A stretch of 20,000 nucleotides of DNA from an uncultured virus (IMG/VR IMGVR_UViG_3300029448_000012) (lineage: Duplodnaviria > Heunggongvirae > Uroviricota > Caudoviricetes): IMG/VR virus record IMGVR_UViG_3300029448_000012; one strand, written 5' to 3'. This document shows, in pieces, positions 1 through 19,279 of the stretch (within the stretch, counting starts at the first letter, position 1; each line of letters opens with the position of its first letter). Under the pieces are notes generated by a model, which searched no databases, was not told where the DNA came from, and saw nothing but the letters and a program-made list of their open reading frames with translations. A program made the position numbers and the translations under genes.

Positions 1-1
1 G

Positions 2-562
2 GCTAACATTCGTAAAAGACGAGCAGCAGGTAAGCCAAAACTTAAACCTGGGCAAAAGGGATATCCTAAGACGTTGAATATCGGCGAAAAGGATAATCCA
101 CGTATTCCTCGTAAAAAGGGTCAGCCTGCAAATTCTAAGAAGCATAGTGATTTATATACAGACGAGAATCCAAAAGGTACTATCAAGGGTCTTGGTTTTA
201 AAGATGTTGAAACTGCAAAAGCAAGTGTAGCAAAAATAAAAAAATCGGGTAAGACTCATGCTCATAAAATACAAGCAGCAATTGCAATGGAACAACGTGC
301 TAGAGTAATGGGCAAGACAGCAGAAGCTGCAGTTTATAGAAAGTATATAAACGCTATGAAAAAGAAAACTAAAGAAATGAATAAGGAAGAGATTACGACA
401 ACTGCATCTATTCCTAATCCGGCTCAAACAGCAATGGGACCGACTGGAAAAGGTATGGTATCATATGTCACTGATCGACGTCGTAAGAAAAAAGAACGTT
501 CTATTATGCTTAAGCGATTTAGAGATTACATGAAAGAAAAAGGCATTATTGAAGATGCTTAG
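2..562 (+). CDS. 5'-truncated basic hypothetical phage protein (possible internal head protein)
   Basis: Frame is open from position 2 (ANIRKRRAAGKPKLKPGQKGYPKTLNIGE...), so the TTG at 74 is probably not the start. Lys-rich, contains HSDLYTDENPKGTIKGLGFKD. Stop at 560-562 overlaps the next gene. Confidence 0.7.
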   Translation, partial: ANIRKRRAAGKPKLKPGQKGYPKTLNIGEKDNPRIPRKKGQPANSKKHSDLYTDENPKGTIKGLGFKDVETAKASVAKIKKSGKTHAHKIQAAIAMEQRARVMGKTAEAAVYRKYINAMKKKTKEMNKEEITTTASIPNPAQTAMGPTGKGMVSYVTDRRRKKKERSIMLKRFRDYMKEKGIIEDA

Positions 563-1058
563 AGTTTATATTTTAATTGTAGTAGTCATGGCTGTTGCCG
601 GTATCGGTTACGGCGCCAAATATTACTATGACACAACTCAAGCAACTATTGCTACTCTCCGAGAAAATAATGCAAAACTAGAAGGTGCGGTAAAAACTGC
701 AGAAGCAAGTCTTGCACTTCTTCAAGACAATATAGTTAAATTGTCCAAACTAAATAAAAATCTTCAGGCCGATCTTCAAAAGGCAGAGGCCTATGGAGAC
801 GAATTACGTGTCAAATTGAATAGACTAAACCTTGTACAAGAAGCACTAAGAGATGCTAAAGTGTTAGAAGGAAAAATGAATGGTGCAACTGCAAAACTTT
901 GGCGTAACCTCATGGACGATACTGGTAATCCTAATGAGTATGATCTTCCTAGCTGGCTGCAGCCGCTTCCAGCCGGAACCGGAGATCAAAATAGTGACGA
1001 AAGTGGAGAAGGTTCAGATACCGACAGTATCGAGGCCGAAACCTCTTCAACTAACTGA
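549..1058 (+). CDS. Putative inner-membrane spanin (Rz-like)
   Basis: Single N-terminal TM helix (VYILIVVVMAVAGIGYG) followed by a long heptad coiled coil. Overlapped at its 3' end by a lipoprotein gene in another frame. Start may be ATG 555. Confidence 0.65.
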   Translation: MKMLRVYILIVVVMAVAGIGYGAKYYYDTTQATIATLRENNAKLEGAVKTAEASLALLQDNIVKLSKLNKNLQADLQKAEAYGDELRVKLNRLNLVQEALRDAKVLEGKMNGATAKLWRNLMDDTGNPNEYDLPSWLQPLPAGTGDQNSDESGEGSDTDSIEAETSSTN

Positions 1059-1308
1059 TACTCGTGTCTTTGTAGTTACGGAACAAACACTTGAAAAATT
1101 TATTGCCGAGTTCAAAGAGATCAACGGTGAAGTAGCATTTGTAGCTCTCTCAATGAAAGACTACCAAAACTTAGCACTTAATATCGCAGAATTAAGAAGA
1201 TATATCGATCAACAAACGCAAATTATAGTTTACTATGAGAATGCAGTGACTGATGAACCAACACAGGAGAATGGTCAAGATGGAACTGAATCTCAATCTA
1301 GCAAATAA
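880..1308 (+). CDS. Putative outer-membrane lipoprotein spanin (Rz1-like)
   Basis: Hydrophobic signal ending in lipobox LAG-C (Cys codon 958-960), then a Pro-containing segment (QPEPE...IPTVSRPKP). Overlaps the upstream gene by 179 nt. Confidence 0.7.
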   Translation: MVQLQNFGVTSWTILVILMSMIFLAGCSRFQPEPEIKIVTKVEKVQIPTVSRPKPLQLTDTRVFVVTEQTLEKFIAEFKEINGEVAFVALSMKDYQNLALNIAELRRYIDQQTQIIVYYENAVTDEPTQENGQDGTESQSSK

Positions 1309-1996
1309 ACTAGCTCGATGCGCAGACTTAGCGTATAAAGACCAAGATGCTCTCGAAGGTTTTGAAGAATTAGGATACACAAAACATATATTTCTTGAGA
1401 GAGAAGAAGCACAATGTCACGTTGTTTGGAACAAAAAAGAAATAGTTGTTGCTTTTCGTGGCACGGAACCTGATCAAATATCTGATATTTTAGCAGACTT
1501 AAAAGCATGGCCAAGAAAATCCATGACTGATGGTTGGGTACATGCTGGATTTCGAGAAGAACTTAATAAACTCTGGGGTCTGGTAAAAATAATTATAAAA
1601 GATTTTCCAGAAAAAACGCTGTACATTTGTGGACATTCTCTTGGTGCTGCAATGGCAACCATATGTGCTTCTCGTGCTGAAGAGTTTAGACCAGTTGATG
1701 GTCTTTATACCTATGGATCACCACGTGTTGGCACAAGATCTTTTGTCAAAGGAATTAAAACTCGGCATTGGAGATTTGTAAATAACAATGATGTTGTTAC
1801 TCGTGTTCCACTAGCGCTGATGGGTTATAAACATCATGGTCAGTTGGTTTATATCAATCACTATGGTAAAATTCGTAAAATGACAATGTGGCAAAGAATT
1901 AAAGATAAGTGGAGAGGATGGAGGTCAGGACTTCTTGACGGCGTACAAGATCACGATATGCCTAACTACGTTAGTTACACAATCAAGGAGAATTAA
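1280..1996 (+). CDS. Lipase class 3 (alpha/beta hydrolase, possible phospholipase)
   Basis: Motifs VAFRGT, GHSLGAA (nucleophile elbow), YTYGSPRVG, RFVNNNDVVTRVP (catalytic Asp), GYKHHG and C-terminal DH. AGGAG at 1265-1269 favours ATG 1280 over 1253. Confidence 0.9.
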   Translation: MELNLNLANKLARCADLAYKDQDALEGFEELGYTKHIFLEREEAQCHVVWNKKEIVVAFRGTEPDQISDILADLKAWPRKSMTDGWVHAGFREELNKLWGLVKIIIKDFPEKTLYICGHSLGAAMATICASRAEEFRPVDGLYTYGSPRVGTRSFVKGIKTRHWRFVNNNDVVTRVPLALMGYKHHGQLVYINHYGKIRKMTMWQRIKDKWRGWRSGLLDGVQDHDMPNYVSYTIKEN

Positions 1997-2278
1997 ATGA
2001 TCGAAAGAATGTTTGATGATACGCTGTGGATATATACAGCTATAGCAGGTTCTCTTCTTGGTGCGGCATTTCTTGCGTATTTCAAAGATACAAAAGCTGG
2101 TTTATGGTGTTATGCTAAGTTAGATCAATTCCTTGATTATCTTGTAAAAAGATGGGGATGGACTTGGTTCGAACAGCCAGCAGATGCATGGAGAAAAAAG
2201 TATCCGTATGTCACTAAAAAAATCGATGAACTCGAAAACAGGATAAAGGAGCTAGAAGATGAATTGGCTAAAAAGTAA
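1997..2278 (+). CDS. Small membrane protein (N-terminal TM, C-terminal coiled coil); holin/antiholin candidate
   Basis: AAGGAG RBS at 1985-1990; TM LWIYTAIAGSLLGAAFLAYF; lies in the lysis-like cluster. Function inferred only. Confidence 0.7.
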   Translation: MIERMFDDTLWIYTAIAGSLLGAAFLAYFKDTKAGLWCYAKLDQFLDYLVKRWGWTWFEQPADAWRKKYPYVTKKIDELENRIKELEDELAKK

Positions 2279-2408
2279 ATTTACTCAAAGTAATACATAT
2301 GAAGGAGCTGTTATTTTAGCAGCAGGTGTAATGATGGTTGTAGCACCACTCAACCTCATTGCTTACGGCATGGTCATCTATGGTGCAATTAAAATTATAA
2401 AGGATTAG
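2259..2408 (+). CDS. 49-aa hydrophobic membrane protein, holin candidate (absent from ORF track)
   Basis: MNWLKSKFTQSNTYEGAVILAAGVMMVVAPLNLIAYGMVIYGAIKIIKD*; AAGGAG at 2246-2251, 7 nt before ATG; fills the gap between neighbouring genes. Confidence 0.75.
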   Translation: MNWLKSKFTQSNTYEGAVILAAGVMMVVAPLNLIAYGMVIYGAIKIIKD

Positions 2409-2410
2409 TT

Positions 2411-2608
2411 ATGAGAGACATTCTTATCGAAGCATTCAAAACGCACGCTAAAGGACATATTGATAAACATATTGCCAATGTAGAAGTGTATCTACACAAT
2501 CCAGCTGGCATTGGCGAGCATTCAGATATTATGGAAGCAATTGAACAAGAAATTGAAGAAATTGCAAAATATAATGATCAACTTGAAATGATGGAAAAGT
2601 ATTTTTAA
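2411..2608 (+). CDS. Hypothetical phage protein (65 aa, NPAGIGEH motif)
   Basis: Clean ORF starting 2 nt after the previous stop; resembles small helical proteins common in marine myophages. Confidence 0.75.
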   Translation: MRDILIEAFKTHAKGHIDKHIANVEVYLHNPAGIGEHSDIMEAIEQEIEEIAKYNDQLEMMEKYF

Positions 2609-2638
2609 GATATCAGTAATATTGTTTCACATTTTTTG

Positions 2639-2668
2639 GTTTACAAAAACTAAAAAATGATATATAAT
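2639..2668 (+). promoter_or_regulatory. T4-type early/sigma70 promoter for the RNR operon
   Basis: GTTTACA (2639-2645), 17-nt spacer, TATAAT (2663-2668); T-tract upstream; AGGAG RBS before ATG 2706. Confidence 0.8.
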
Positions 2669-2705
2669 AATTCCATATAAAAAAATCAAAACCAGGAGAA
2701 TATCA

Positions 2706-4922
2706 ATGGCAACAGCTCATGTTGACACAAGGCAGTTTTTGTCTCAAACTAAATTTTACGAAGGATATTCTCGTTTCAAAGATGAAGAAAATAGATATGA
2801 ATCTTGGGACGAGGCTGTCGATAGAGTTATCGGCATGCATTCAGAAAATTATAAAGAAAAAGGCAACGAGTTAGAGCCATATCTAGAAGAAGCAAGGGAA
2901 GCTTACAAAGAGCAACGCGTACTTGCAGCTCAGCGATCTCTCCAGTTTGGTGGTGAACAGCTACTTAAACACCAAATGCGTATGTATAACTGTACGTCAT
3001 CTTATGCTGATCGTCCAGAGTTTTTCGGCGAAGTATTTTATATTCTTTTGTGTGGTGCAGGTGCTGGTTTTTCTGTGCAAAAACATCATATTGCTAAAAT
3101 GCCACAGATTGCAAACCGTACGAAACAGGCAAAAGGTTATATCGTAGAAGATTCAATTGAAGGTTGGGCATCGGCTCTAGATGTGTTAATGTCATCATAC
3201 TTTGTTGGTGGTGGTAAACATCCAGAATTTGAAGGTCGACGTGTATTCTTTGATCTTTCTAATATTCGTCCTCGAGGTGCTAAGATTTCTGGTGGATTTA
3301 AAGCTCCTGGTCCAGAAGGTCTTCGTCGTTCTCTTGATAAGATTGAACACATGCTTCAGTCTATCGTCATTGATCAAAAGAAACCGATCGATCTCAAGCC
3401 GATTAACGTGTATGACATTACCATGCATGCAGCTGATGCTGTTCTCTCTGGTGGCGTGCGTCGTTCTGCTACAATTTGTTTGTTCTCACCTGATGATGAA
3501 GAGATGATGACTGCAAAGACTGGTAATTGGTTTATTGACAATCCACAACGTGGTCGTTCTAATAACTCTGCGGTTATCGTTCGTGATGAAGCTGATAAAG
3601 AACAATTTGCTAAATTGATGGAATCAGTTAAATCATTTGGTGAACCAGGTTTTGTTTTTGTTGAATCAAAAGAGCATACAACTAACCCATGTGTTGAGAT
3701 TGGTATGTATCCACAGATTGATGGCGAATCTGGCTGGCAAGGTTGTAACCTTACCGAAATCAATGGTGGTATGTGTAAGACAGAAGAAGACTTTTATAAA
3801 GCATGCCGAGCTGCAGCCATCCTTGGTACAGTACAGGCTGGTTATACAGACTTTAAATTCTTATCATCAACATCAAAAAAAATCTTTGACCGTGAAGCAC
3901 TTCTTGGTGTTTCTATTACTGGATGGATGAATCAACCTGAAATCCTTTTTAATCCAAAAGTCTTGGAAAATGGAGCCAAGATTGTCAAAGAAGTTAATAA
4001 AGAAGTCGCAGCCATTATTGGTATTAATCCTGCCGCTCGGACTACTTGTGTTAAGCCTAGCGGAAACGCATCCGTCTTACTGCAAACCGCTTCTGGTATC
4101 CATGCTGAACACTCAGATATGTACATCAGAAACGTCCAAATGAATAAAGAATCTGAAATTACACAGGCAATCATTAAGTCAAATCCGTATATGGTAGAAG
4201 ACTCTGTATGGTCAGCATCAGGTACTGACGTTGTTGTTTCTTTCCCGATTATTCCACATAAGGGTTCTATTCTTAAGGATGATCTTCTTGGTGTAACACA
4301 CCTTGAAAAAGTTAAGATGGCTCAAAAACATTGGGTTGTAGCTGGCACAAATGAAGAACTTTGTGCAGACAAAGGCATTCGTCACAACGTATCAAATACA
4401 ATCATTGTTGATGACTGGAATGAAGTCGAAGAATATGTCTTTAAAAATCGTCATTCGTTTGCAGGTATTTCATTTCTGTCAATGAGTGGTGATAAAGACT
4501 ATAATCAGGCTCCAAACACTGCAGTTATAAATGCTAAAAAGATGGTTAAAAAATATGATGAAGCAGCAATCTTTGCCTCCGGTCTAGTAGTTGATGCGCT
4601 CAAAGCATATAATAACCTTTGGGATGCATGTTCTACTGCACAGGGTTATGGTATCGATATTTCTCTTGAGTCTGCAGAAAACTTTGCACGGGCTGACTGG
4701 AATCGCCGATTCGAAAACTTTGCAAAAAACTATCTTGACGGTGACATGAAAATGGCTGAACATTGTCTTAAAGATTCTTATTTGCTTCATAGGTGGAATA
4801 AAATTCAAGCAAATCTTAAGCCAGTTGATTGGAAAGACGGTTTAACTGCAAAGGTGTACACCGACGTTGATACTATTGGTTCTGCAGCATGTGTTGGCGG
4901 AGCGTGTGAAATTGACTTTTAG
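2706..4922 (+). CDS. nrdJ: Class II adenosylcobalamin-dependent ribonucleotide reductase, monomeric RTPR type
   Basis: Motifs YNCT, GAGFSV, DSIEGW, FDLSNIRPRG..I.GG..APGP, GGVRRSA, SNNS, GEPG, NPCVEI (thiyl Cys), GCNLTE, CVKPSGN, and C-terminal CVGGAC redox pair. No beta-subunit gene follows. Confidence 0.9.
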   Translation: MATAHVDTRQFLSQTKFYEGYSRFKDEENRYESWDEAVDRVIGMHSENYKEKGNELEPYLEEAREAYKEQRVLAAQRSLQFGGEQLLKHQMRMYNCTSSYADRPEFFGEVFYILLCGAGAGFSVQKHHIAKMPQIANRTKQAKGYIVEDSIEGWASALDVLMSSYFVGGGKHPEFEGRRVFFDLSNIRPRGAKISGGFKAPGPEGLRRSLDKIEHMLQSIVIDQKKPIDLKPINVYDITMHAADAVLSGGVRRSATICLFSPDDEEMMTAKTGNWFIDNPQRGRSNNSAVIVRDEADKEQFAKLMESVKSFGEPGFVFVESKEHTTNPCVEIGMYPQIDGESGWQGCNLTEINGGMCKTEEDFYKACRAAAILGTVQAGYTDFKFLSSTSKKIFDREALLGVSITGWMNQPEILFNPKVLENGAKIVKEVNKEVAAIIGINPAARTTCVKPSGNASVLLQTASGIHAEHSDMYIRNVQMNKESEITQAIIKSNPYMVEDSVWSASGTDVVVSFPIIPHKGSILKDDLLGVTHLEKVKMAQKHWVVAGTNEELCADKGIRHNVSNTIIVDDWNEVEEYVFKNRHSFAGISFLSMSGDKDYNQAPNTAVINAKKMVKKYDEAAIFASGLVVDALKAYNNLWDACSTAQGYGIDISLESAENFARADWNRRFENFAKNYLDGDMKMAEHCLKDSYLLHRWNKIQANLKPVDWKDGLTAKVYTDVDTIGSAACVGGACEIDF

Positions 4923-5496
4923 AAGAATATTTTTAGATGTTGGAGCAAATGTAGGTCAAAACATTCTTAATTTCAAAAAATTATACGGTGATGATTATGA
5001 AAATTATGAAATATTTGCCTTTGAACCACACCCTGATAATTTTTTATATCTAAAACAAAAATTTGAAGTTAATCCAAAAGTAACACTTTTTCAGGCTGGT
5101 GTATCTAACGTAGATGGAGAAAAAAAATTATACCTCGGATCTTCTAAAAGTCATACGTTTAGAGAAGATAAGTCAACTTTCATGTTGACAAAAGATCCAA
5201 TAAAAGTAAAATCTATAAATTTGTCTAAATGGATAAAAAATAATTTTATAAAAAACGATGAAATTATTTTATATTTAGACATTGAAGGTGAAGAATATGC
5301 TGTCTTACAAGAAATGATTGATGACAATATATTAGATTGGATTGATGAATTATATGTAGAATTTCATGAAAAAAAATTAAACAATTTAGATGAAAAACAA
5401 CATGATCACATAATGCAAACTCTAATCAACACACTTAAAGATAAAGTTTACATTCACGCAAAATACCAAGAAAAACTTTATGAAAGACTAGGTTAG
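4906..5496 (+). CDS. FkbM-family SAM-dependent methyltransferase
   Basis: IFLDVGANVG, FAFEPHP, LDIEGEEY, VEFH motifs. Start uncertain (GTG 4906 or TTG 4912 after GGAG 4899-4902). Confidence 0.85.
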   Translation: MKLTFRRIFLDVGANVGQNILNFKKLYGDDYENYEIFAFEPHPDNFLYLKQKFEVNPKVTLFQAGVSNVDGEKKLYLGSSKSHTFREDKSTFMLTKDPIKVKSINLSKWIKNNFIKNDEIILYLDIEGEEYAVLQEMIDDNILDWIDELYVEFHEKKLNNLDEKQHDHIMQTLINTLKDKVYIHAKYQEKLYERLG

Positions 5497-5505
5497 GAAA
5501 AGTTA

Positions 5506-5661
5506 ATGAACGAGTATCAAATCGAATGTCACGGATGTGATGATGAAATGGTAGTAATATGTGGTTCAGATATTCCAACTTTCTGTCCACTTTGTGGAAG
5601 CGATGATCTAGTAATCATCAAACGTGAAACAGCTTTTGAAGATTGGGATGAAGACGAGTAA
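5506..5661 (+). CDS. Small zinc-ribbon protein (51 aa; absent from ORF track)
   Basis: MNEYQIECHGCDDEMVVICGSDIPTFCPLCGSDDLV...; CxxC plus CPxCG, acidic tail; AGGA upstream. Confidence 0.8.
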   Translation: MNEYQIECHGCDDEMVVICGSDIPTFCPLCGSDDLVIIKRETAFEDWDEDE

Positions 5662-5672
5662 TATATACTCGT

Positions 5673-6074
5673 ATGTGGTATTATAAAGGCAAAGAATTTA
5701 ATGAAACACCAGAAGAGTATCAAGGATTTGTTTATGAAATTACCGAGTTGCGAACTGGGAAAAAGTATATTGGAAAGAAAAATTTCTGGCGTCCAAAAAC
5801 TCTTCCTAAAAATAGCAAACGATCTCGACGAGTTAAAACAAAAGTTGAATCAGACTGGAGATCCTACTATGGATCAAACGTGGAATTACAAAGACTCGTC
5901 GAAGAATCAGGATCAGACGCATATAAAAGGGTAATTCTTCGTCTTTGTAAAACTAAAGGTGAGATGTCTTATTTTGAAGCAAAAGAACAATTTGAAAAAG
6001 ATGTTCTCTTGAGCGATAATTATTATAATGAATTTATAGGATGTAAGATACATTCTAAACATTTAAAGATATAA
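5673..6074 (+). CDS. denA: GIY-YIG nuclease, T4 endonuclease II-like
   Basis: GFVYEIT...KKYIGKK, W..YYGS, YFEAKEQF, YYN motifs; 133 aa standalone domain located after the RNR. Confidence 0.8.
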   Translation: MWYYKGKEFNETPEEYQGFVYEITELRTGKKYIGKKNFWRPKTLPKNSKRSRRVKTKVESDWRSYYGSNVELQRLVEESGSDAYKRVILRLCKTKGEMSYFEAKEQFEKDVLLSDNYYNEFIGCKIHSKHLKI

Positions 6075-6077
6075 ATA
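6070..6077 (+). promoter_or_regulatory. T4-type late promoter TATAAATA
   Basis: Exact consensus overlapping the upstream stop codon, 16 nt before ATG 6094 (GGTG RBS in between). Confidence 0.65.
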
Positions 6078-6093
6078 AAATCATGGTGGTGAT

Positions 6094-6504
6094 ATGCTAG
6101 TATATGAAGTACTTGAAAAAGTCAGAAAAGCTCGATCAAAAGAGCAGAAAATCAAGATTCTAAAACAAAATGAAACGTGGGCATTGAAAGATATCTTACG
6201 TGGCACGTTTGACTCTACAGTAGAGTGGAATCTTCCGAGCGGCGAACCTCCGTATAAACCAGCAAAAGAAGACGCACCAACTAATCTTCTCAAAGAACAT
6301 AAGAATTTTGTATACCTCGTAAAAGGATTTCGCGAATCTAATCGTTTGCATCCGGTAAAGCGCGAGAGTATCTTCATCGGTTTGATCGAGGGAATTCATC
6401 CTAAGGATGCAGAACTCGTTATTGCTATGATAAACAAAACTAAACCTGAAGGCATTAGCCGACCAGTAGTAGAGGAGGCTTTTCCTGGATTACTGCAAGA
6501 CTAG
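6094..6504 (+). CDS. Conserved T4-like phage hypothetical protein (DUF6433-like)
   Basis: EVLEKV...K.EQKIKILK, W.LP.GEPPY, KRE.IFI.LIEGIHP.DAELVI motifs recalled from marine T4-like phages. Confidence 0.75.
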   Translation: MLVYEVLEKVRKARSKEQKIKILKQNETWALKDILRGTFDSTVEWNLPSGEPPYKPAKEDAPTNLLKEHKNFVYLVKGFRESNRLHPVKRESIFIGLIEGIHPKDAELVIAMINKTKPEGISRPVVEEAFPGLLQD

Positions 6505-6532
6505 TGTCATCATCTTTAACTGGAGACAATAA

Positions 6533-6685
6533 ATGCCTGCAATTCAACTCGAAAGACTAAAAAACGACATTTCTGAATTAGAAAATTATATTAAAAAACT
6601 AACAAAGAAAGGTCAAATTGATCGAGTTTCAAAACTTCTTGAAAAGAAAACATTCCTAGAAGAAAGGTTAGCAGCTGTAATTTAA
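6533..6685 (+). CDS. 50-aa coiled-coil hypothetical protein (absent from ORF track)
   Basis: MPAIQLERLKNDISELENYIKKLTKKGQIDRVSKLLEKKTFLEERLAAVI*; GGAG RBS at 6522-6525. Confidence 0.75.
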   Translation: MPAIQLERLKNDISELENYIKKLTKKGQIDRVSKLLEKKTFLEERLAAVI

Positions 6686-6687
6686 TT

Positions 6688-6717
6688 GTTTACATTTCCT
6701 CTGTTTAGTGGTATAAT
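6688..6717 (+). promoter_or_regulatory. T4-type early promoter with extended -10
   Basis: GTTTACA (6688-6694), 17-nt spacer, TGnTATAAT (TATAAT 6712-6717). Confidence 0.8.
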
Positions 6718-6748
6718 TATACTATATCATTAAACAGGGGTTTTTTTT
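6698..6748 (+). terminator. 18-bp RNA hairpin plus U8 tract (terminator / RBS-sequestering stem)
   Basis: 6698-6715 CCTCTGTTTAGTGGTATA pairs with 6723-6740 TATATCATTAAACAGGGG (15 Watson-Crick + 3 G-U), 7-nt loop, then T8 directly before ATG 6749. Confidence 0.7.
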
Positions 6749-7306
6749 ATGAATATTTTTATCCTTGATGAATCTCCAGCAGTGTCTGCTATGTGGCAAT
6801 GTGACAAACACGTGCCTAAGATGGTTGTGGAATCCGCTCAAATGCTGTCCACCGCTCATCGTATACTTGATGGTTCGGTAGAAAAACGGCCGTCAAAGTC
6901 TGGTAAGACTATGGTTAAATACTATAAACTTAATGATAGTCGTGAAGATGTCTTTTATAAAGCTGTACACTTTGCTCATCCTTGCACTATATGGACAATG
7001 GAATCTGTAAAAAACTATGAATGGCATTACCAGCATTTTTGGACACTTTGCAAAGAATATACATACAGATATAATAAAATACATAAGACCGAAAGCGTTT
7101 TACTCGAAGCTCTGAAGAAACCACCATACAATATTCCTGATGTTCCTCAGACTCCTTTTAAACTCGCTATGAAATCTAATCCAGAATGTATTGCTCTTGG
7201 CGATCCTATAAAAGCTTATCAAGCATTCTATCAAACGAAACAAGAGCGCTTTAAAATGGTATGGACAAAGCGCGAAAAACCGGAGTGGTTTAATTATGTA
7301 CAATGA
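6749..7306 (+). CDS. Pyrimidine dimer DNA glycosylase / endonuclease V-like protein
   Basis: MNIF.LD..P...A...CDKHV.KM..ESAQMLSTAH, HPCTIW, EYTYRY.K.H motifs. Confidence 0.75.
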   Translation: MNIFILDESPAVSAMWQCDKHVPKMVVESAQMLSTAHRILDGSVEKRPSKSGKTMVKYYKLNDSREDVFYKAVHFAHPCTIWTMESVKNYEWHYQHFWTLCKEYTYRYNKIHKTESVLLEALKKPPYNIPDVPQTPFKLAMKSNPECIALGDPIKAYQAFYQTKQERFKMVWTKREKPEWFNYVQ

Positions 7307-7469
7307 TCTTGACAGAATTATGATTTTACAGGAAGAGATTGCTATTCTTAAATCTCGTCTTGAACCGCATGACACTGGTCATCTACACACCACTATTCAT
7401 GTGCTGAGTGAGCGTGTTGTAGAACTAAGAGAGGAAATCGATGCCCGTTTACACCCTTCGAGATCTTAA
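7296..7469 (+). CDS. 57-aa hypothetical protein (absent from ORF track)
   Basis: MYNDLDRIMILQEEIAILKSRLEPHDTGHLHTTIHVLSERVVELREEIDARLHPSRS*; GGAG upstream; bridges its neighbours with overlaps. Confidence 0.7.
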   Translation: MYNDLDRIMILQEEIAILKSRLEPHDTGHLHTTIHVLSERVVELREEIDARLHPSRS

Positions 7470-7671
7470 AACAAACAATCAGTGGGATGTTAATTGTAGC
7501 TTCGAAGAATTAGAAGTAATTCTGGATGAATTGCCAGACACTGAACGTGTATGGAAACCAAATGCTTTTATTACACAGGCCGGTAGTACACTAAGTAGAA
7601 CCGATACTGATTTTAGAAGCCATTTGAAATCACTTAAAAAGAAATATCCCGGAAGCACTATTAACGATTAG
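7441..7671 (+). CDS. FmdB-like small protein lacking the Cys ligands
   Basis: MPVYT start, GAGGA RBS, C-terminal F...L..LKKKYPGS; positioned upstream of phoH as is usual in marine T4-like phages. Confidence 0.7.
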   Translation: MPVYTLRDLKTNNQWDVNCSFEELEVILDELPDTERVWKPNAFITQAGSTLSRTDTDFRSHLKSLKKKYPGSTIND

Positions 7672-7679
7672 GTATATAC

Positions 7680-8357
7680 ATGAGCTCATCACGTGCTAAA
7701 ATAGAAGATCTTTGTGAATTTGATCCGATCACTGCAAACCAGGAGAAAACATTTAAACTCTGGGATGAAGGTGAGAATCTTGTACTCATGGGATCAGCCG
7801 GCACTGGTAAGACTTTTATAGCAATGTACCTTGCATTAGAATCTATACTGGCTAAAGAAACAAGTTATGACAAAATTATATTAATTCGTTCAGTAGTGCC
7901 AGTGCGTGAAGTTGGTTATCTTCCAGGTAAATTAGAAGAAAAAACGTCTGCCTTTGAAGCACCTTACAAATCAATCTCGGAAGAGTTGTTTGAAGATAAG
8001 ACAGCGTATAATAAACTGGTGTCATCACATCAGTTACAGTTTGAGACTACATCGTTTATTCGTGGTAAAACATTTGACCGTGCAATTATTATTGTAGATG
8101 AGATGCAGAACTTAAACTTCCATGAACTTGATTCTGTTATGACTCGAGTTGGTGAGAATTGTCGTATTATTTTTGCTGGTGACTATCTACAGTCAGATTT
8201 TAAATATGACGGAGAGCGCGATGGTTTAATGAAGTTCCTCAACATTATTGAGAGAATGAAACATTTTTCTATCGTACAATTTGGATGGGACGACATTGTT
8301 CGTTCTGGTATTGTTCGTGATTACATCATGACAAAAGAAATGATTGGATTGAAATAA
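7680..8357 (+). CDS. phoH: PhoH-family ATPase
   Basis: Walker A GSAGTGKT, GYLPG..EEK, FIRGKTF, IIVDEMQN, TRVG, GD..QSD, DIVRSG.V. Confidence 0.95.
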   Translation: MSSSRAKIEDLCEFDPITANQEKTFKLWDEGENLVLMGSAGTGKTFIAMYLALESILAKETSYDKIILIRSVVPVREVGYLPGKLEEKTSAFEAPYKSISEELFEDKTAYNKLVSSHQLQFETTSFIRGKTFDRAIIIVDEMQNLNFHELDSVMTRVGENCRIIFAGDYLQSDFKYDGERDGLMKFLNIIERMKHFSIVQFGWDDIVRSGIVRDYIMTKEMIGLK

Positions 8358-8358
8358 A

Positions 8359-8697
8359 ATGAAACTTTTACTAACGGCATTAGTCGCAACTGTGCTTTAT
8401 GCATGTCAACCGGTACACGCACAAATATTGTACCAAAAACCTGTCATTTGTGGATCCATGAAAGCACTTATTCCTGAATGGGAAAAAGATGGTATGTACC
8501 CACTAACAGGTCTTTTAGGTGGATCACCTACAAAAGAACTGGGTAAATATAAAGATTCTTACTCGGTACTTCTTGTAAACCCTGAAGGAAAATGGGCATT
8601 TTTTGAGTATAATGGAGGAAAATCTTGTTTACTTTCCGGTGGATTTATGGTACAATATAATTCTAATGAAATAAAAGAATTTATGGGTTGGGAATGA
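8359..8697 (+). CDS. Hypothetical protein with N-terminal signal peptide
   Basis: MKLLLTALVATVLYACQPVHA: possible SPI (VHA) or lipoprotein (LYAC) signal; two further Cys in the mature part. Confidence 0.7.
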   Translation: MKLLLTALVATVLYACQPVHAQILYQKPVICGSMKALIPEWEKDGMYPLTGLLGGSPTKELGKYKDSYSVLLVNPEGKWAFFEYNGGKSCLLSGGFMVQYNSNEIKEFMGWE

Positions 8698-8698
8698 A

Positions 8699-9373
8699 AT
8701 GGAGTTTATTCATGAGAAAATTGATCTTGGATACGAAAGCTTGGATCGTGTTGAACATTCAGATGGTCGGCGCTATCTCACTAGCAGTGGTAATGCTTAC
8801 CCTTCTGTTACTACAGTCTTAGGTGTTTTAAGTAGAGAATCGATTGCTCAATGGCGAGCTAAAGTTGGTGAAGAAGAAGCCGACAAGGTTAGTCGTCGAG
8901 CAACTACACGCGGTACAGCGGTTCATTCTATTATTGAAAAATATATGAACAATGAACCTGACTATGCCGAAGGTTTTCTACCACATGTTGTACAATCATT
9001 AGAAAATCTCAAACCACTCTTACATAAGCATATTACTAAAGTCTATGGTCAAGAAGTTCCACTTTATTCAGACCATTTGAAACTTGCTGGTACATGTGAT
9101 GCTATTGTAGAATGGGATGGTGTACCTACAATTGTTGATTGGAAAACATCACGTCGTCCAAAGAAAAAAGCTAATATCGGTAGTTACTTTATGCAGTTAG
9201 CAGCATATGCTGTCATGTGGGAAGAACGTACTGGTATGGCAGTCAATCAAACACGTATTGTAATGGACGTAGATGACTTCCATCCGGTCATGTACAAAGA
9301 AACACGTGATGCTTGGATTGATAAAATGATCGAAGTGCGTGATCAGTATAATAGAGAAAAACTATTTCATTAA
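8699..9373 (+). CDS. PD-(D/E)XK exonuclease (T4-like marine phage exonuclease)
   Basis: YPSVTTVL, RGTAVH..IE, E..LYS, AGTCD, IVDWKTS, YFMQLAAYA motifs; follows phoH. Confidence 0.85.
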   Translation: MEFIHEKIDLGYESLDRVEHSDGRRYLTSSGNAYPSVTTVLGVLSRESIAQWRAKVGEEEADKVSRRATTRGTAVHSIIEKYMNNEPDYAEGFLPHVVQSLENLKPLLHKHITKVYGQEVPLYSDHLKLAGTCDAIVEWDGVPTIVDWKTSRRPKKKANIGSYFMQLAAYAVMWEERTGMAVNQTRIVMDVDDFHPVMYKETRDAWIDKMIEVRDQYNREKLFH

Positions 9374-9411
9374 AAAAACGTAAGTGATTGTTTTTAAATA
9401 AAATAAAAATG

Positions 9412-9464
9412 CACTTTTTTGTTTACTTTTCTTCTTAATTGATTTATAATTAATCTATAAAATG
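9412..9464 (+). repeat. Early-promoter cassette copy 1 (direct repeat with 9695-9747)
   Basis: 51/53 nt identical to 9695-9747. Contains GTTTAC 9421-9426, 17-nt spacer after TTTACT, TATAAT 9445-9450; followed by GAGGAG RBS. Confidence 0.9.
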
Positions 9465-9476
9465 AGGAGAAACTAA

Positions 9477-9689
9477 ATGTTAAATTATAATCTAAACAAC
9501 CCAACACCATTCATCAAAAAATATATTTCTAAAAACAATCATATTATTAACAAATTCGCAGATTTACTATTTTCGGATCCAAACACTACATCATCATCAC
9601 CATTTAATTCACTACCACCATTAACTCAAAAACTCATCTTCGAACTATCATTATACAAAGTGGAAAACGGCCGTGATTTTTATTTATAA
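9477..9689 (+). CDS. 70-aa early hypothetical protein, extremely G-poor coding sequence
   Basis: Has its own strong promoter and GAGGAG RBS; the minus-strand frames checked hit early stops. Confidence 0.7.
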   Translation: MLNYNLNNPTPFIKKYISKNNHIINKFADLLFSDPNTTSSSPFNSLPPLTQKLIFELSLYKVENGRDFYL

Positions 9690-9703
9690 AATCACACTTT
9701 TTT
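9673..9703 (+). terminator. Possible weak terminator/stem-loop upstream of the second early promoter
   Basis: GTGATTTT (9673-9680) / AAAATCAC (9688-9695) inverted repeat followed by ACTTTTTT; the stem is AT-rich. Confidence 0.4.
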
Positions 9704-9747
9704 GTTTACTTTTCTTTTAAATTGATTTATAATTAATCTATAAAATG
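9695..9747 (+). repeat. Early-promoter cassette copy 2
   Basis: 51/53 nt identical to 9412-9464; GTTTAC 9704-9709, TATAAT 9728-9733; followed by GAAATG then AGGAGAA. Confidence 0.9.
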
Positions 9748-9765
9748 GAAATGAGGAGAACAGAT

Positions 9766-10077
9766 ATGACTTATGTAATGCAACAAGACCTTCGCGACTA
9801 CATCAACGCTCAGCGTGCAGAGGCTGAAGAGTTTTCTAAGCAGCCTGGCTGCTGGATGGGCAAGATGGTCAATCCAGATGATACTGAGTATTGGTCGGAG
9901 CGTGCTCCATGTGGTACCCTAAAGGGGTTCCAGCGCATCGAGCTTATCGAAGATGCGTACTACATTACGGCAGATCGGACAAGCAAGTCCTATGCCCGTT
10001 CGTTGGACTTTGCTAATTGGTCCGACAAAAATCTTGAGCGCCATATCGAGCGCATGTGTGAAAGGGAGTCAGCATAA
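9766..10077 (+). CDS. Early hypothetical protein
   Basis: ATG 9766 follows GAGGAG (9753-9758), so it is preferred to 9745; TAATG overlap with the next gene. Confidence 0.75.
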   Translation: MTYVMQQDLRDYINAQRAEAEEFSKQPGCWMGKMVNPDDTEYWSERAPCGTLKGFQRIELIEDAYYITADRTSKSYARSLDFANWSDKNLERHIERMCERESA

Positions 10078-10619
10078 TGACAATTTATCTTGATATGGAC
10101 GGCGTATTGGCCGATTTCTTTGGTGGAGTTGAAAAACTTTACAATGTTGATCACTGGAAATCAATTCAACATCGTGATGGAATCTTTGTAGAGCTTCGTA
10201 ATACAGACTTCTTTTATACGCTTCCAATCTTTAGAGAAGATCGTGGACCTCGTCGAGCAGGTGCTAGTATCTCTTGTGAAATCGTTCGATTTGTAAAACA
10301 AATTTCTAATGGTGACTGGGGCATTTGCTCTTCTCCACTTCGTGGTGATGAACACAACTCAGCTTACTGGAAACGTCGCTGGTTGGAAGATAAAAACTAT
10401 ATGCCAGAAGTCGAAAAGTGTATCTTTACTTCTAACAAACACAAGTATGCTCTGAATGACATTACTCGTAAACCAAATATTCTCATCGATGATAAACCAG
10501 AAAATATTGCTCGATGGAATAAAGCTGGTGGTATCGGTATTCGCTACCAAACAAATGAAGATGATCTTAGAGAATACCTGTTTGTGAAACTAGAAGAGGC
10601 ATATAGTGGAATATACTGA
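10077..10619 (+). CDS. HAD-family 5'(3')-deoxyribonucleotidase
   Basis: IYLDMDGVLADF (motif I), ICSSP, K..W, K.KYA, NILIDDKPENI..W..AGG.GI. Confidence 0.88.
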   Translation: MTIYLDMDGVLADFFGGVEKLYNVDHWKSIQHRDGIFVELRNTDFFYTLPIFREDRGPRRAGASISCEIVRFVKQISNGDWGICSSPLRGDEHNSAYWKRRWLEDKNYMPEVEKCIFTSNKHKYALNDITRKPNILIDDKPENIARWNKAGGIGIRYQTNEDDLREYLFVKLEEAYSGIY

Positions 10620-11277
10620 AAAATATTATGGAAAAAAATTGTATTATATTCCTGAAACTTACGATCTTAATATTATTAAAGAGCAGAAAGGATACGACAC
10701 GTTATTTCAAAATGCTACTGATAAAACTTTTTTTGATGTTGGTGGCAATAAAGGATATACATGTGCATATGCTTTATCTAAAGGAGTAAAGAAAATTATA
10801 TCCTTTGAACCAGAACCTTTAAATATCGAATATCATAAAAAGAATACAATCGATGGAGATGTTACTTTATATGAGGGTATGGCATCGACAACTGATGGAG
10901 AATCTACACTGTACGTGAATTGGGGAAAAAATCATGGATTACATTCTCCTGTAAAACGTAAAGGTAGAAAAGAAATCAAAGTTAAAACATTCGACTTTTG
11001 GAGAATATTAGAAGAGACTCAACCAGAATTATTAAAAATAGATATAGAAGGTGGAGAATATTCTTTAGGTCTAGAAACGCGAATGTTACCAGACTCAATT
11101 GAAAGAATAGCCATTGAAATAGATTGGAAAGGCTGGGGAAATATGAAAGACAAAAAAGGTGGCAGGCCTTACGCTCTTTACAAATCTATTAAAGAACAGT
11201 TTCCAGTTGTATTACATGATACTACAAGAGATTGGACTCAATTTAATTGGTCAATGGTTTATATTGGAGGAAGATAA
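10606..11277 (+). CDS. FkbM-family SAM-dependent methyltransferase
   Basis: FFDVGGNKG, ISFEPEP, LLKIDIEGGEY; GTG start with GAGG RBS. Confidence 0.8.
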   Translation: MEYTEKYYGKKLYYIPETYDLNIIKEQKGYDTLFQNATDKTFFDVGGNKGYTCAYALSKGVKKIISFEPEPLNIEYHKKNTIDGDVTLYEGMASTTDGESTLYVNWGKNHGLHSPVKRKGRKEIKVKTFDFWRILEETQPELLKIDIEGGEYSLGLETRMLPDSIERIAIEIDWKGWGNMKDKKGGRPYALYKSIKEQFPVVLHDTTRDWTQFNWSMVYIGGR

Positions 11278-19119: not shown

Positions 19120-19147
19120 ATTATACCATATTTAGCAGGAAAGTAAA
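19120..19147 (-). promoter_or_regulatory. Leftward early/sigma70 promoter
   Basis: On the minus strand: TTTACT (19147-19142), 16-nt spacer, TGnTATAAT (19125-19120); GAGGGAAGG RBS before ATG 19086. Confidence 0.7.
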
Positions 19148-19176
19148 GGAAAAAATTTTTTTTTTAAAAAAAACAC

Positions 19177-19221
19177 AAGTGGTTGTTTTTAAACGAAATA
19201 AAAATGCATTTTTTTGTTTAC
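19177..19221 (+). repeat. Upstream element repeat shared with 9382-9426
   Basis: 41/45 nt identical to 9382-9426, ending in GTTTAC. Confidence 0.85.
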
Positions 19222-19245
19222 AATCCCTCTTTTTTATGGTAAGAT
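19216..19245 (+). promoter_or_regulatory. Rightward T4-type early promoter
   Basis: GTTTACA (19216-19222), 17-nt spacer, TGnTAAGAT (19240-19245). Confidence 0.75.
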
Positions 19246-19279
19246 GTATATACAAAATGAGGAAAACAGGAGTTCCAAA

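Follow-up and report, generated by a model that had tools for sequence, protein, structure and literature searches.

In the T4-type phages RB49 and phi1, promoter-early stem-loop (PeSL) cassettes combine a strong sigma70-like promoter and an A+T-rich upstream region with a stem-loop terminator, and they are repeated before small ORFans in variable regions, where recombination between the repeats adds or removes genes; PeSLs bordering gene 43, which encodes the DNA polymerase, have also been noted (Arbiol et al. 2010, PMC2839356, cited here and below for the part of that paper drawn on). We analysed a locus of this type in a 20,000-nt stretch of DNA from an uncultured virus (IMG/VR record IMGVR_UViG_3300029448_000012; the whole stretch is called the window below). 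It carries orf70, a 70-codon gene at 9477-9689 on the + strand that is almost devoid of G, and in relatives a second gene of the same kind, orfB, lies beside it. The cassette type is already known. The new part is a natural gene near the minimum of G, present twice side by side, which is not described in the open-access full-text literature that we searched; no description of natural G-free phage genes was found there.

Artificial G-less cassettes are used for in vitro transcription without guanosine triphosphate (GTP), and target-site purges are known from ACA-less (MazF-resistant) mRNAs and from restriction-site avoidance. Like the artificial cassettes, orf70 has long G-free transcribed stretches in the non-template strand; unlike them, its natural transcript would need 17 G, is not GTP-independent and encodes a conserved protein. 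As in the ACA-less mRNAs and in restriction-site avoidance, a feature has been removed to the coding limit and the removal is kept in relatives, whereas here a whole base is missing from one strand of one or two genes and G+C palindromes persist. Another comparison is with transcription termination. Rho binds YC dinucleotides. A Rho loading site is described as 70-80 nt of unstructured RNA in which C exceeds G, with a pause element after it, and among the validated Rho predictions in E. coli a C/G ratio of 3 or more was found in 37 of 4494 (PMC6407284). In T4, Rho sites lie between immediate-early and delayed-early genes and are masked by translation of the upstream gene (PMC2988021; this and the preceding paper are likewise cited for the parts drawn on).

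Base composition and coding of orf70

A recount of 9481-9660 gave A77 C43 G6 T54, which reproduces exactly the 6 G versus 43 C from which the original prediction started, and its two G-free runs, 9480-9557 (78 nt) and 9577-9641 (65 nt), were also recovered. No other G-free run in the window exceeds 38 nt, and the longest run without C measures 48 nt. Among 180-nt stretches of the window, the lowest count is 5 G (start 9480; mean 36.6, SD 6.35, z ~ -5.0), and the runner-up that does not overlap it has 17 G. The open reading frame (ORF) of orf70 has 13 G in 213 nt (6.1%), whereas 32 other window ORFs, a comparison set picked by hand from the ORF list, have 20.9% G (SD 2.2, minimum 15.5), placing orf70 far outside the per-gene distribution (z = -6.7). 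It is thus correct that the neighbouring genes carry no such skew. orf70 is also the most C-rich among 40 window ORFs.

The protein is built mostly from residues that can be encoded without G, as had been claimed. A G-containing codon is required for 10 of its 70 residues (14%), compared with a mean of 44% and a minimum of 33% in the other window ORFs and with 36-46% in the flanking genes of relatives. None of the 4031 60-residue stretches in other window ORFs has fewer than 12 G-requiring residues, whereas the orf70 protein has 4-5. The features of the locus are as follows.

9349-9421, + strand: A+T-rich region upstream of promoter P1, the left end of a 123-nt direct repeat (repeat copy 1, 9349-9471)
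9422-9450, + strand: P1, early-type sigma70 promoter (-35 TTTACT, or GTTTAC with the preceding G; 17-nt spacer; -10 TATAAT; 10 of 12 promoter-scan matches)
9464-9469, + strand: Shine-Dalgarno sequence GAGGAG, 7 nt before the ATG, holding 4 of the 17 G of the predicted transcript
9465-9663, + strand: stretch absent from the related fragment G001, with exact ends ambiguous, the crossover lying inside identical promoter sequence
9477-9689, + strand: orf70, 70-codon gene for a small helical protein (kept frame, homologues, dN/dS, AlphaFold2)
9480-9557, + strand: first G-free run, 78 nt, with 15 C and 0 G
9558-9576, + strand: central G island, codons A28-D29 and S33-D34, with a GGATCC site and with TCG, whose avoidable G is conserved
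9577-9641, + strand: second G-free run, 65 nt; the 78-nt segment 9579-9656 has 25 C and 1 G
9673-9703, + strand: terminator-like hairpin across the stop codon, GTGATTTT / loop TATTTAT / AAAATCAC (9673-9695), then T6 (9698-9703)
9705-9733, + strand: P2, second promoter copy, which would serve the next, G-rich gene (ORF 9745-10077, probable start 9766)

To follow the gene in other genomes, we collected its homologues in public metagenomes, which form 26 protein clusters at 77-97% identity, and fetched 32 further DNA copies, giving 33 with the window copy. The reading frame is intact in 33 of 33. Among 19 unique sequences 90 of 210 columns are variable, 41 of them at third positions, and many of the first-position changes are synonymous Leu changes. 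The median ratio of nonsynonymous to synonymous substitution rates (dN/dS) is 0.20 (222 pairs), compared with 0.09 in the adjacent polymerase gene. Homologues show an in-frame extension of two codons at the N-terminus. AlphaFold2 predicts a helical fold (predicted local distance difference test score, pLDDT, 85.9; predicted template modelling score, pTM, 0.74), with helices nearly without Ala, Glu, Arg and Met. The kept frame, the dN/dS of 0.20, the GTTTAC-N17-TATAAT promoter and the GAGGAG sequence argue for a protein gene behind an early-type promoter, as originally proposed. The description of a "strongly expressed early gene" stands for the promoter and ribosome-binding signals; strong expression itself is what these signals predict. 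Contigs from RNA libraries (two runs of one sample) span 9266-9464 and 9607-10070 and none spans 9465-9606, a pattern from which absence, strand, level and the starts or ends of transcripts cannot be read, DNA being possibly present.

orf70, orfB and two flanking small ORFs belong to no family in PHROGs or Pfam. A search of 50,697 phage records gave no match to orf70, whether near or distant DNA search or protein search was used. With the predicted fold as query, Foldseek had no match in PDB or BFVD (E up to 0.001). The top score of VIA-align among 48,161 chains, Z = 5.2, fell on a designed helical protein and is too low to be meaningful for folds of helices. The ESM Atlas had no usable match, and Rfam had none at E up to 1. 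A profile search of 1.84 billion representatives returned seven matches. Three short proteins that align across almost the whole profile (P0027, P0028 and P0030) were accepted as homologues; P0030 is a singleton with E = 1e-4 to the orf70 profile. Three matches of 444-2078 aa aligned over short stretches only and were dropped as low-complexity. The DNA of P0027, P0028 and P0030 was not found by sequence look-ups, which gave either nothing or loci already in the set, or in a metagenome scan (at least seven close relatives among the matches listed).

The ribosome-binding site accounts for 4 of the 17 G in the predicted transcript (9457-9703, 247 nt), the AUG for one and codons for 12. The codon G belong to invariant or nearly invariant Asp, Glu and Gly, and two of them lie in the terminator stem. 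It is thus well supported that the G of the transcript are almost confined to signals or to conserved needs for Asp, Glu and Gly. Each of the 19 unique orf70 sequences has one to three avoidable G. The conserved avoidable G of relatives are those of TCG at codon 33, kept in 18 of 19 unique sequences, and of GCG or ACG at codon 28. In the ORF the base after G is A in 5 cases, T in 3, G in 3 and C in 2, and the GAGGAG ribosome-binding site adds two GA.

The only conserved avoidable G (9558-9580 and homologous positions) fall in CGGA(T) words. CGGA occurs in 23 of 23 unique sequences, with two or more copies in 16, and such words, conspicuous in an otherwise G-free RNA, are candidate protein-binding words. 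G+C palindromes are also kept inside the gene in these 23 sequences (GGATCC in 19/23, GATC in 20/23 and CGGCCG in 18/23). A central hairpin (9553-9579) is predicted in the window; it was dropped, because the sequences of L015 and L027 disrupt it and that of L008 weakens it, and none of these changes is compensated.

Conservation of G poverty and the second gene orfB

All of the 32 fetched copies are G-poor (5.2-8.0% G) and so lack the ordinary G content that would have counted against the original prediction. The 24 copies on viral contigs, which have the same range of 5.2-8.0%, lie in loci with 15-20% G. Moreover, in 28 of 33 loci orf70 is followed by a second promoter, a fixed spacer of 68-69 nt and a second small gene, orfB (60-85 codons), with 5.6-9.2% G and 19-26% C. 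The fold predicted for orfB is confident (pLDDT 86.8). A relationship of orf70 and orfB as paralogues was rejected, the hhalign probability between them being 1.2%.

A relative's 73-kb contig (G002) with 121 ORFs served as a per-gene comparison set. orf70 and orfB have the lowest G of the 121 ORFs (6.7 and 7.8%, vs 19.3 +/- 2.9%), and the next-lowest ORF has 12.4%. The same two genes have the fewest G-requiring residues (15-16%, vs 40.7 +/- 6.6%), and orfB is the most C-rich of the 121. The outlying G content seen in the window is therefore also found in a relative, and for both genes.

In 16 of the 16 loci with the polymerase called (L001-L032; e.g. L011 3536-3541), the orfB stop codon lies directly against the polymerase ATG or overlaps with it, and the ribosome-binding site of the polymerase gene is supplied by the G of the last orfB codons. 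orfB would therefore be the leader cistron of the polymerase message, which suggests that translation of the polymerase is coupled to that of orfB. The L011 orfB (3282-3539) contains an internal tandem duplication of 20 codons; it has 85 codons, compared with 60-67 elsewhere, and is still almost G-free.

The G poverty is written mainly in the amino acids, and avoidance at synonymous sites is weaker. In the window, orf70 has 13 G where its protein needs at least 11 and window codon usage predicts 19.1 +/- 2.5 (P = 0.007). Two of its 40 optional codons end in G, compared with a background of 15.3% (P = 0.044), and in the L023 homologue 1 of 42 does so, compared with 17.9% (P = 0.0025). G avoidance among homologues thus holds at nonsynonymous sites and, at synonymous sites, in these two G-richer genomes, whereas in AT-rich relatives it does not go beyond background. 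In 45 of 49 genome pairs, which are not independent, dS is lower in orf70 than in the polymerase gene (medians 0.32 vs 0.58), and in the same pairs dN is higher in orf70 (0.076 vs 0.046). At four-fold boxes, C makes up 14.3% in orf70, a value between those of the polymerase gene (8.7%) and the upstream gene (15.4%). Among the distant homologues, P0030 has 33% G-requiring residues and P0027 and P0028 have 15-16%, compared with 13% in the family.

These results make selection at the nucleic acid level likely, as had been proposed, since near-minimal G is conserved; they also make the case less clear-cut than proposed, because the poverty lies mostly in the choice of amino acids. A quirk of one protein is not a sufficient account, because orfB is equally G-poor but not homologous, and because P0030 tolerates 33% G-requiring residues.

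The cassette, its mobility and its neighbours

The window comes from an uncultured marine T4-like phage. Its genes include those for a ribonucleotide reductase, PhoH, a Cas4-like exonuclease, a 5'-nucleotidase, FkbM methyltransferases, glycosyltransferases and a SegE-like homing endonuclease. The closest complete genome by neighbouring proteins is Phage C48C1 of the Kyanoviridae (exonuclease 50%, polymerase 53%), which has no such cassette before its polymerase gene. It is well supported that 9422-9703 is a self-contained early expression cassette, as predicted from its signals, of a marine T4-like (Kyanoviridae-like) phage.

The 123-nt direct repeat occurs in three aligned copies (9349-9471, 9632-9754 and 19144-19266), and the promoter copies P1 and P2 are 283 bp apart. 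The pattern TTTAC-N17-19-TADAAT is found five times in the window, compared with 0.41 expected. A stem-loop predicted upstream of orf70, in the region 9349-9421, is no better than shuffles (z = -0.69). The hairpin at 9673-9695 has an 8-bp stem and a folding z of -2.25 (-2.60 in the relative L011). Its stem shows covariation between T:A and C:G: a script matched GTGATTTT/AAAATCAC (GTG/CAC) in five forms and GCGATTTT/AAAATCGC (GCG/CGC) in 12, and L032 was seen by eye in the alignment to be a sixth form of the GTG/CAC stem.

The locus shares with PeSLs a repeated sigma70-like promoter with an A+T-rich upstream region (9422-9450, 9705-9733 and the third repeat at 19144-19266), a terminator-type stem-loop joined to a promoter, which is seen in the copy downstream of orf70, and a small gene without family at a variable position, with gain or loss of a unit between repeats. 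Similarly to PeSLs near gene 43, the pair of cassettes lies directly before the polymerase gene in 28 of 33 loci. It differs in its stem-loop, which is A/U-rich and runs across the stop codon, whereas PeSL stems are polyG/polyC. The part of the PeSL paper drawn on is silent on the base composition of the carried genes (PMC2839356). PeSL promoter and terminator activity was measured by Arbiol et al. (2010), whereas those of the present cassette are predicted from its sequence.

Two other elements in the window are of related kinds. At 6689-6750 lies a PeSL-like element in which TTTACA-N17-TATAAT overlaps a hairpin with an 18-bp stem (6698-6740), followed by T8, directly before the ORF at 6749. 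At 19120-19245 two early-type promoters are divergent (- strand, 19147-19120; + strand, 19217-19245), and this region includes the third copy of the promoter repeat.

To see whether the cassette is a fixed part of these genomes is possible by comparison with the nearest record found, G001, a 5.66-kb fragment whose positions 1-4102 match window 5363-9464 at 99.5% and whose positions 4013-4957 match window 9664-10602. Its junction has one hybrid promoter, consisting of the spacer of the left repeat and the downstream part of the right repeat. Exactly one 283-bp cassette unit is thus present in one phage and absent in the other, as judged from the aligned sequences. In addition, orf70 occurs in three genomic contexts. 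In the window it is flanked by the exonuclease gene and a G-rich ORF. In L023 and L024, which of all the loci are closest to the window in their other genes (54-72% identity), it follows a SegE-like gene. In the remaining loci it immediately precedes orfB and the DNA polymerase gene. Because G001 lacks exactly one unit and carries the hybrid promoter, and because orf70 is found in three contexts, it is well supported that the cassette is optional and mobile. An anti-defence or takeover role, which the original prediction had put forward, fits a dispensable, mobile early cassette, and orf70 is a candidate for it.

In two DNA runs (X1 and X4), an orf70-specific contig (9473-9749) has word depths of 7.5 and 20.9, compared with 16-19 and 35-52 in the flanks. 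This gives a hint, contig depth being a weak measure, that the cassette is present in only part of the natural population.

Several observations concern the genes nearby. The gene for the SegE-like GIY-YIG homing endonuclease is at 5673-6074 in the window and at 1212-1619 in L023, and in L023 and L024 the orf70 homologue is directly behind it. G001 also lacks 10603-11264, corresponding to an FkbM-type methyltransferase ORF (10606-11277), a second presence/absence difference between phages that are 96-99% identical. No family was found for the ORF right after orf70 (9745-10077), which has the highest G content in the window (27.9%; G+C is 52% in 9801-10000). Its translation probably starts at the ATG at 9766, behind GAGGAG at 9752-9757, and the gene looks recently acquired.

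Explanations and meaning of the G poverty

The explanation towards which we lean, tentatively, is that single-strandedness of the transcript has been selected and serves both instant translation and translation-gated loading of Rho. The G poverty would then be maintained by selection acting on the transcript rather than on the protein. With A, C and U alone, an RNA can form only A-U pairs and would stay single-stranded, and here it is also C-rich. Ribosomes could begin to translate it immediately, within the first minute of infection, and any such RNA left bare of ribosomes would be a near-ideal loading site for Rho. The Rho effect would tie the very strong early promoters to ongoing translation and would back up the weak A/U-rich hairpin terminator. 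In relatives, where the orfB leader is fused to the polymerase gene, the same logic would gate extension into that gene. Either consequence may be the selected one, and we pick neither.

Predicted folding is consistent with this. The minimum free energy of orf70 is -10.4 kcal/mol per 213 nt (vs -42.7 +/- 8.1), the weakest of 185 window segments, and 299 of 300 synonymous recodings fold more strongly than the native sequence. The segments with C/G of 15/0 (9480-9557) and 25/1 (9579-9656) are the two best 78-nt segments on the + strand. As in a Rho utilisation site, C/G exceeds 1 over 78 nt, the RNA is predicted to be unstructured, and a hairpin follows (9673-9695). The arrangement in relatives also resembles the T4 scheme, so far as PMC2988021 describes it, in that a promoter-proximal early cistron lies upstream of a delayed-early-type gene, that of the polymerase. 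orf70 is unlike the typical Rho sites of PMC6407284, in the part drawn on, in that its C/G values are far more extreme and YC is not enriched. It also differs in that its stretch lies within a predicted well-translated ORF and that Rho dependence would be a prediction from its sequence.

Several results weigh against selected single-strandedness. When recodings with the same G count are compared, the native sequence folds more weakly in three of five orf70 copies (fractions 0.013, 0.010, 0.040, 0.34 and 0.165) and in none of four orfB copies, so that folding weaker than the lack of G alone gives is not established. The synonymous signal in AT-rich relatives is weak or absent. Optional codons ending in G are rare everywhere there (4.2% in orf70, 9.0% in the polymerase gene), and at four-fold boxes G is more frequent in orf70 (6.9%) than in the polymerase gene (2.4%); the 6.9% is largely due to the two conserved avoidable G at codons 33 and 28. 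The number of YC dinucleotides, 25, is what shuffles give (24.2 +/- 3.0), and the longest chain of C spaced 11-13 nt has three members in the first G-free run and six in the second. Given the strong ribosome-binding site, a Rho site within orf70 would usually be masked. The gain per G from less structure in the middle of a gene is expected to be small, which makes it a doubtful driver for the exclusion of Ala, Glu, Val and Arg. Finally, the Rho part of the explanation presumes a host that has Rho.

Among the alternatives, avoidance of a target is possible, although we consider it unlikely. Infection would begin in the presence of a factor, perhaps a toxin or nuclease of the host or an enzyme of the phage itself, that recognises G, or a very short word containing G, in single-stranded RNA or in one strand of the DNA and cuts or modifies it there, and its targets would have been purged as far as the protein allows. 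A lethal hit per site would account for strong selection better than structure does, and the purge is indeed near its minimum (13 G where 11 are possible, with one to three avoidable G in each of 19 unique sequences). The leftover G stand in signals, in invariant Asp, Glu or Gly codons or in the base-paired terminator stem, two unrelated neighbouring genes have the purge in common, and dS is depressed. However, GA is not avoided, GGAG is part of the ribosome-binding site, TCG and GCG codons keep avoidable G across relatives, and G is normal or high in this phage's other genes with early promoters (27.9% in the next gene). We know of no factor with plain G specificity that acts on early phage mRNA. 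The GA-directed attack of the original prediction (CmdT type, with the specificity assumed there) is not supported, as GA accounts for 5 of the 13 G in the ORF and is not preferentially lost. Composition of the proteins alone appears improbable. Under this explanation the two proteins would simply need Asn, Lys, Leu, Ile, Pro, Thr, Ser, Phe, Tyr and Gln, with AT-rich codon bias doing the rest; it agrees with the dominance of amino-acid choice, with four-fold G that is not below background in AT-rich relatives and with the low values of the distant P0027 and P0028 (15-16%). It leaves unexplained that two non-homologous neighbours are the extremes of 121 ORFs (15-16% vs 40.7 +/- 6.6%), that synonymous avoidance is seen in two G-richer backgrounds together with depressed dS, that P0030 tolerates 33%, and that helices are made nearly without Ala, Glu, Arg and Met.

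A constraint on the DNA, by which a C-less template would avoid modified cytosine or the duplex would avoid G+C palindromes read by restriction or methylation, is more improbable still. The asymmetry is strictly strand-specific, and several methyltransferase and glycosyltransferase genes are in the window. However, GGATCC (19/23), CGGCCG (18/23) and GATC (20/23) are conserved inside the gene, which speaks against avoidance of restriction or methylation sites; no genes for cytosine or guanine hypermodification were recognised in the 20-kb window, a small sample, the other early genes are unbiased, and cutting elsewhere would kill the phage anyway. We give little credit to nucleotide economy, that is, a transcript that could be made at scarce GTP in starved or stringent hosts or under a GTP-depleting defence. 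The predicted transcript has 17 G in 247 nt, and purine-salvage-like genes lie near the cassette in relatives (translations inspected by eye). GTP would nevertheless be required for the 4 G of the ribosome-binding site, the one of the AUG and the 12 in codons, and other early genes of the same phage have normal G. Translation itself consumes GTP. The 17 G left in the transcript thus speak against the GTP limitation originally suggested. Least credible of all is a non-coding RNA or strand-asymmetric DNA element in place of a protein gene, an alternative that the original prediction had also raised. The extreme composition and the lack of a protein family in Pfam, PHROGs, PDB folds and BFVD would suit it, but the frame kept in 33 of 33 copies, the 41 of 90 variable columns at third positions, the synonymous Leu changes, the dN/dS of 0.20, the in-frame two-codon extension, the confident fold and the absence of an Rfam match at E up to 1 all contradict it.

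A more far-reaching possibility, which we regard as speculative, is that orf70 and orfB are "three-letter" genes, first-minute genes of ocean T4-like phages in which nucleic-acid selection is strong enough to shrink the amino-acid alphabet of the protein, and that the cause is a host or phage factor reading single G in single-stranded early RNA. If both were true, the gene would naturally report on a new form of RNA-directed attack or control at the very outset of infection. Should the base content of a message dictate which amino acids can be used, this would be an unusually clean natural case of selection at the RNA or DNA level prevailing over the freedom of the protein. The idea is directly testable, since a gene of 210 nt lends itself to recoding and to comparison with the native allele. 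The answer would reveal which factor restricts gene expression during the first seconds after infection by a T4-type phage, be it RNA folding, Rho coupling or a G-reading factor, and the link between leader and polymerase in relatives suggests that such phages may use translation-based gating of their replication genes.

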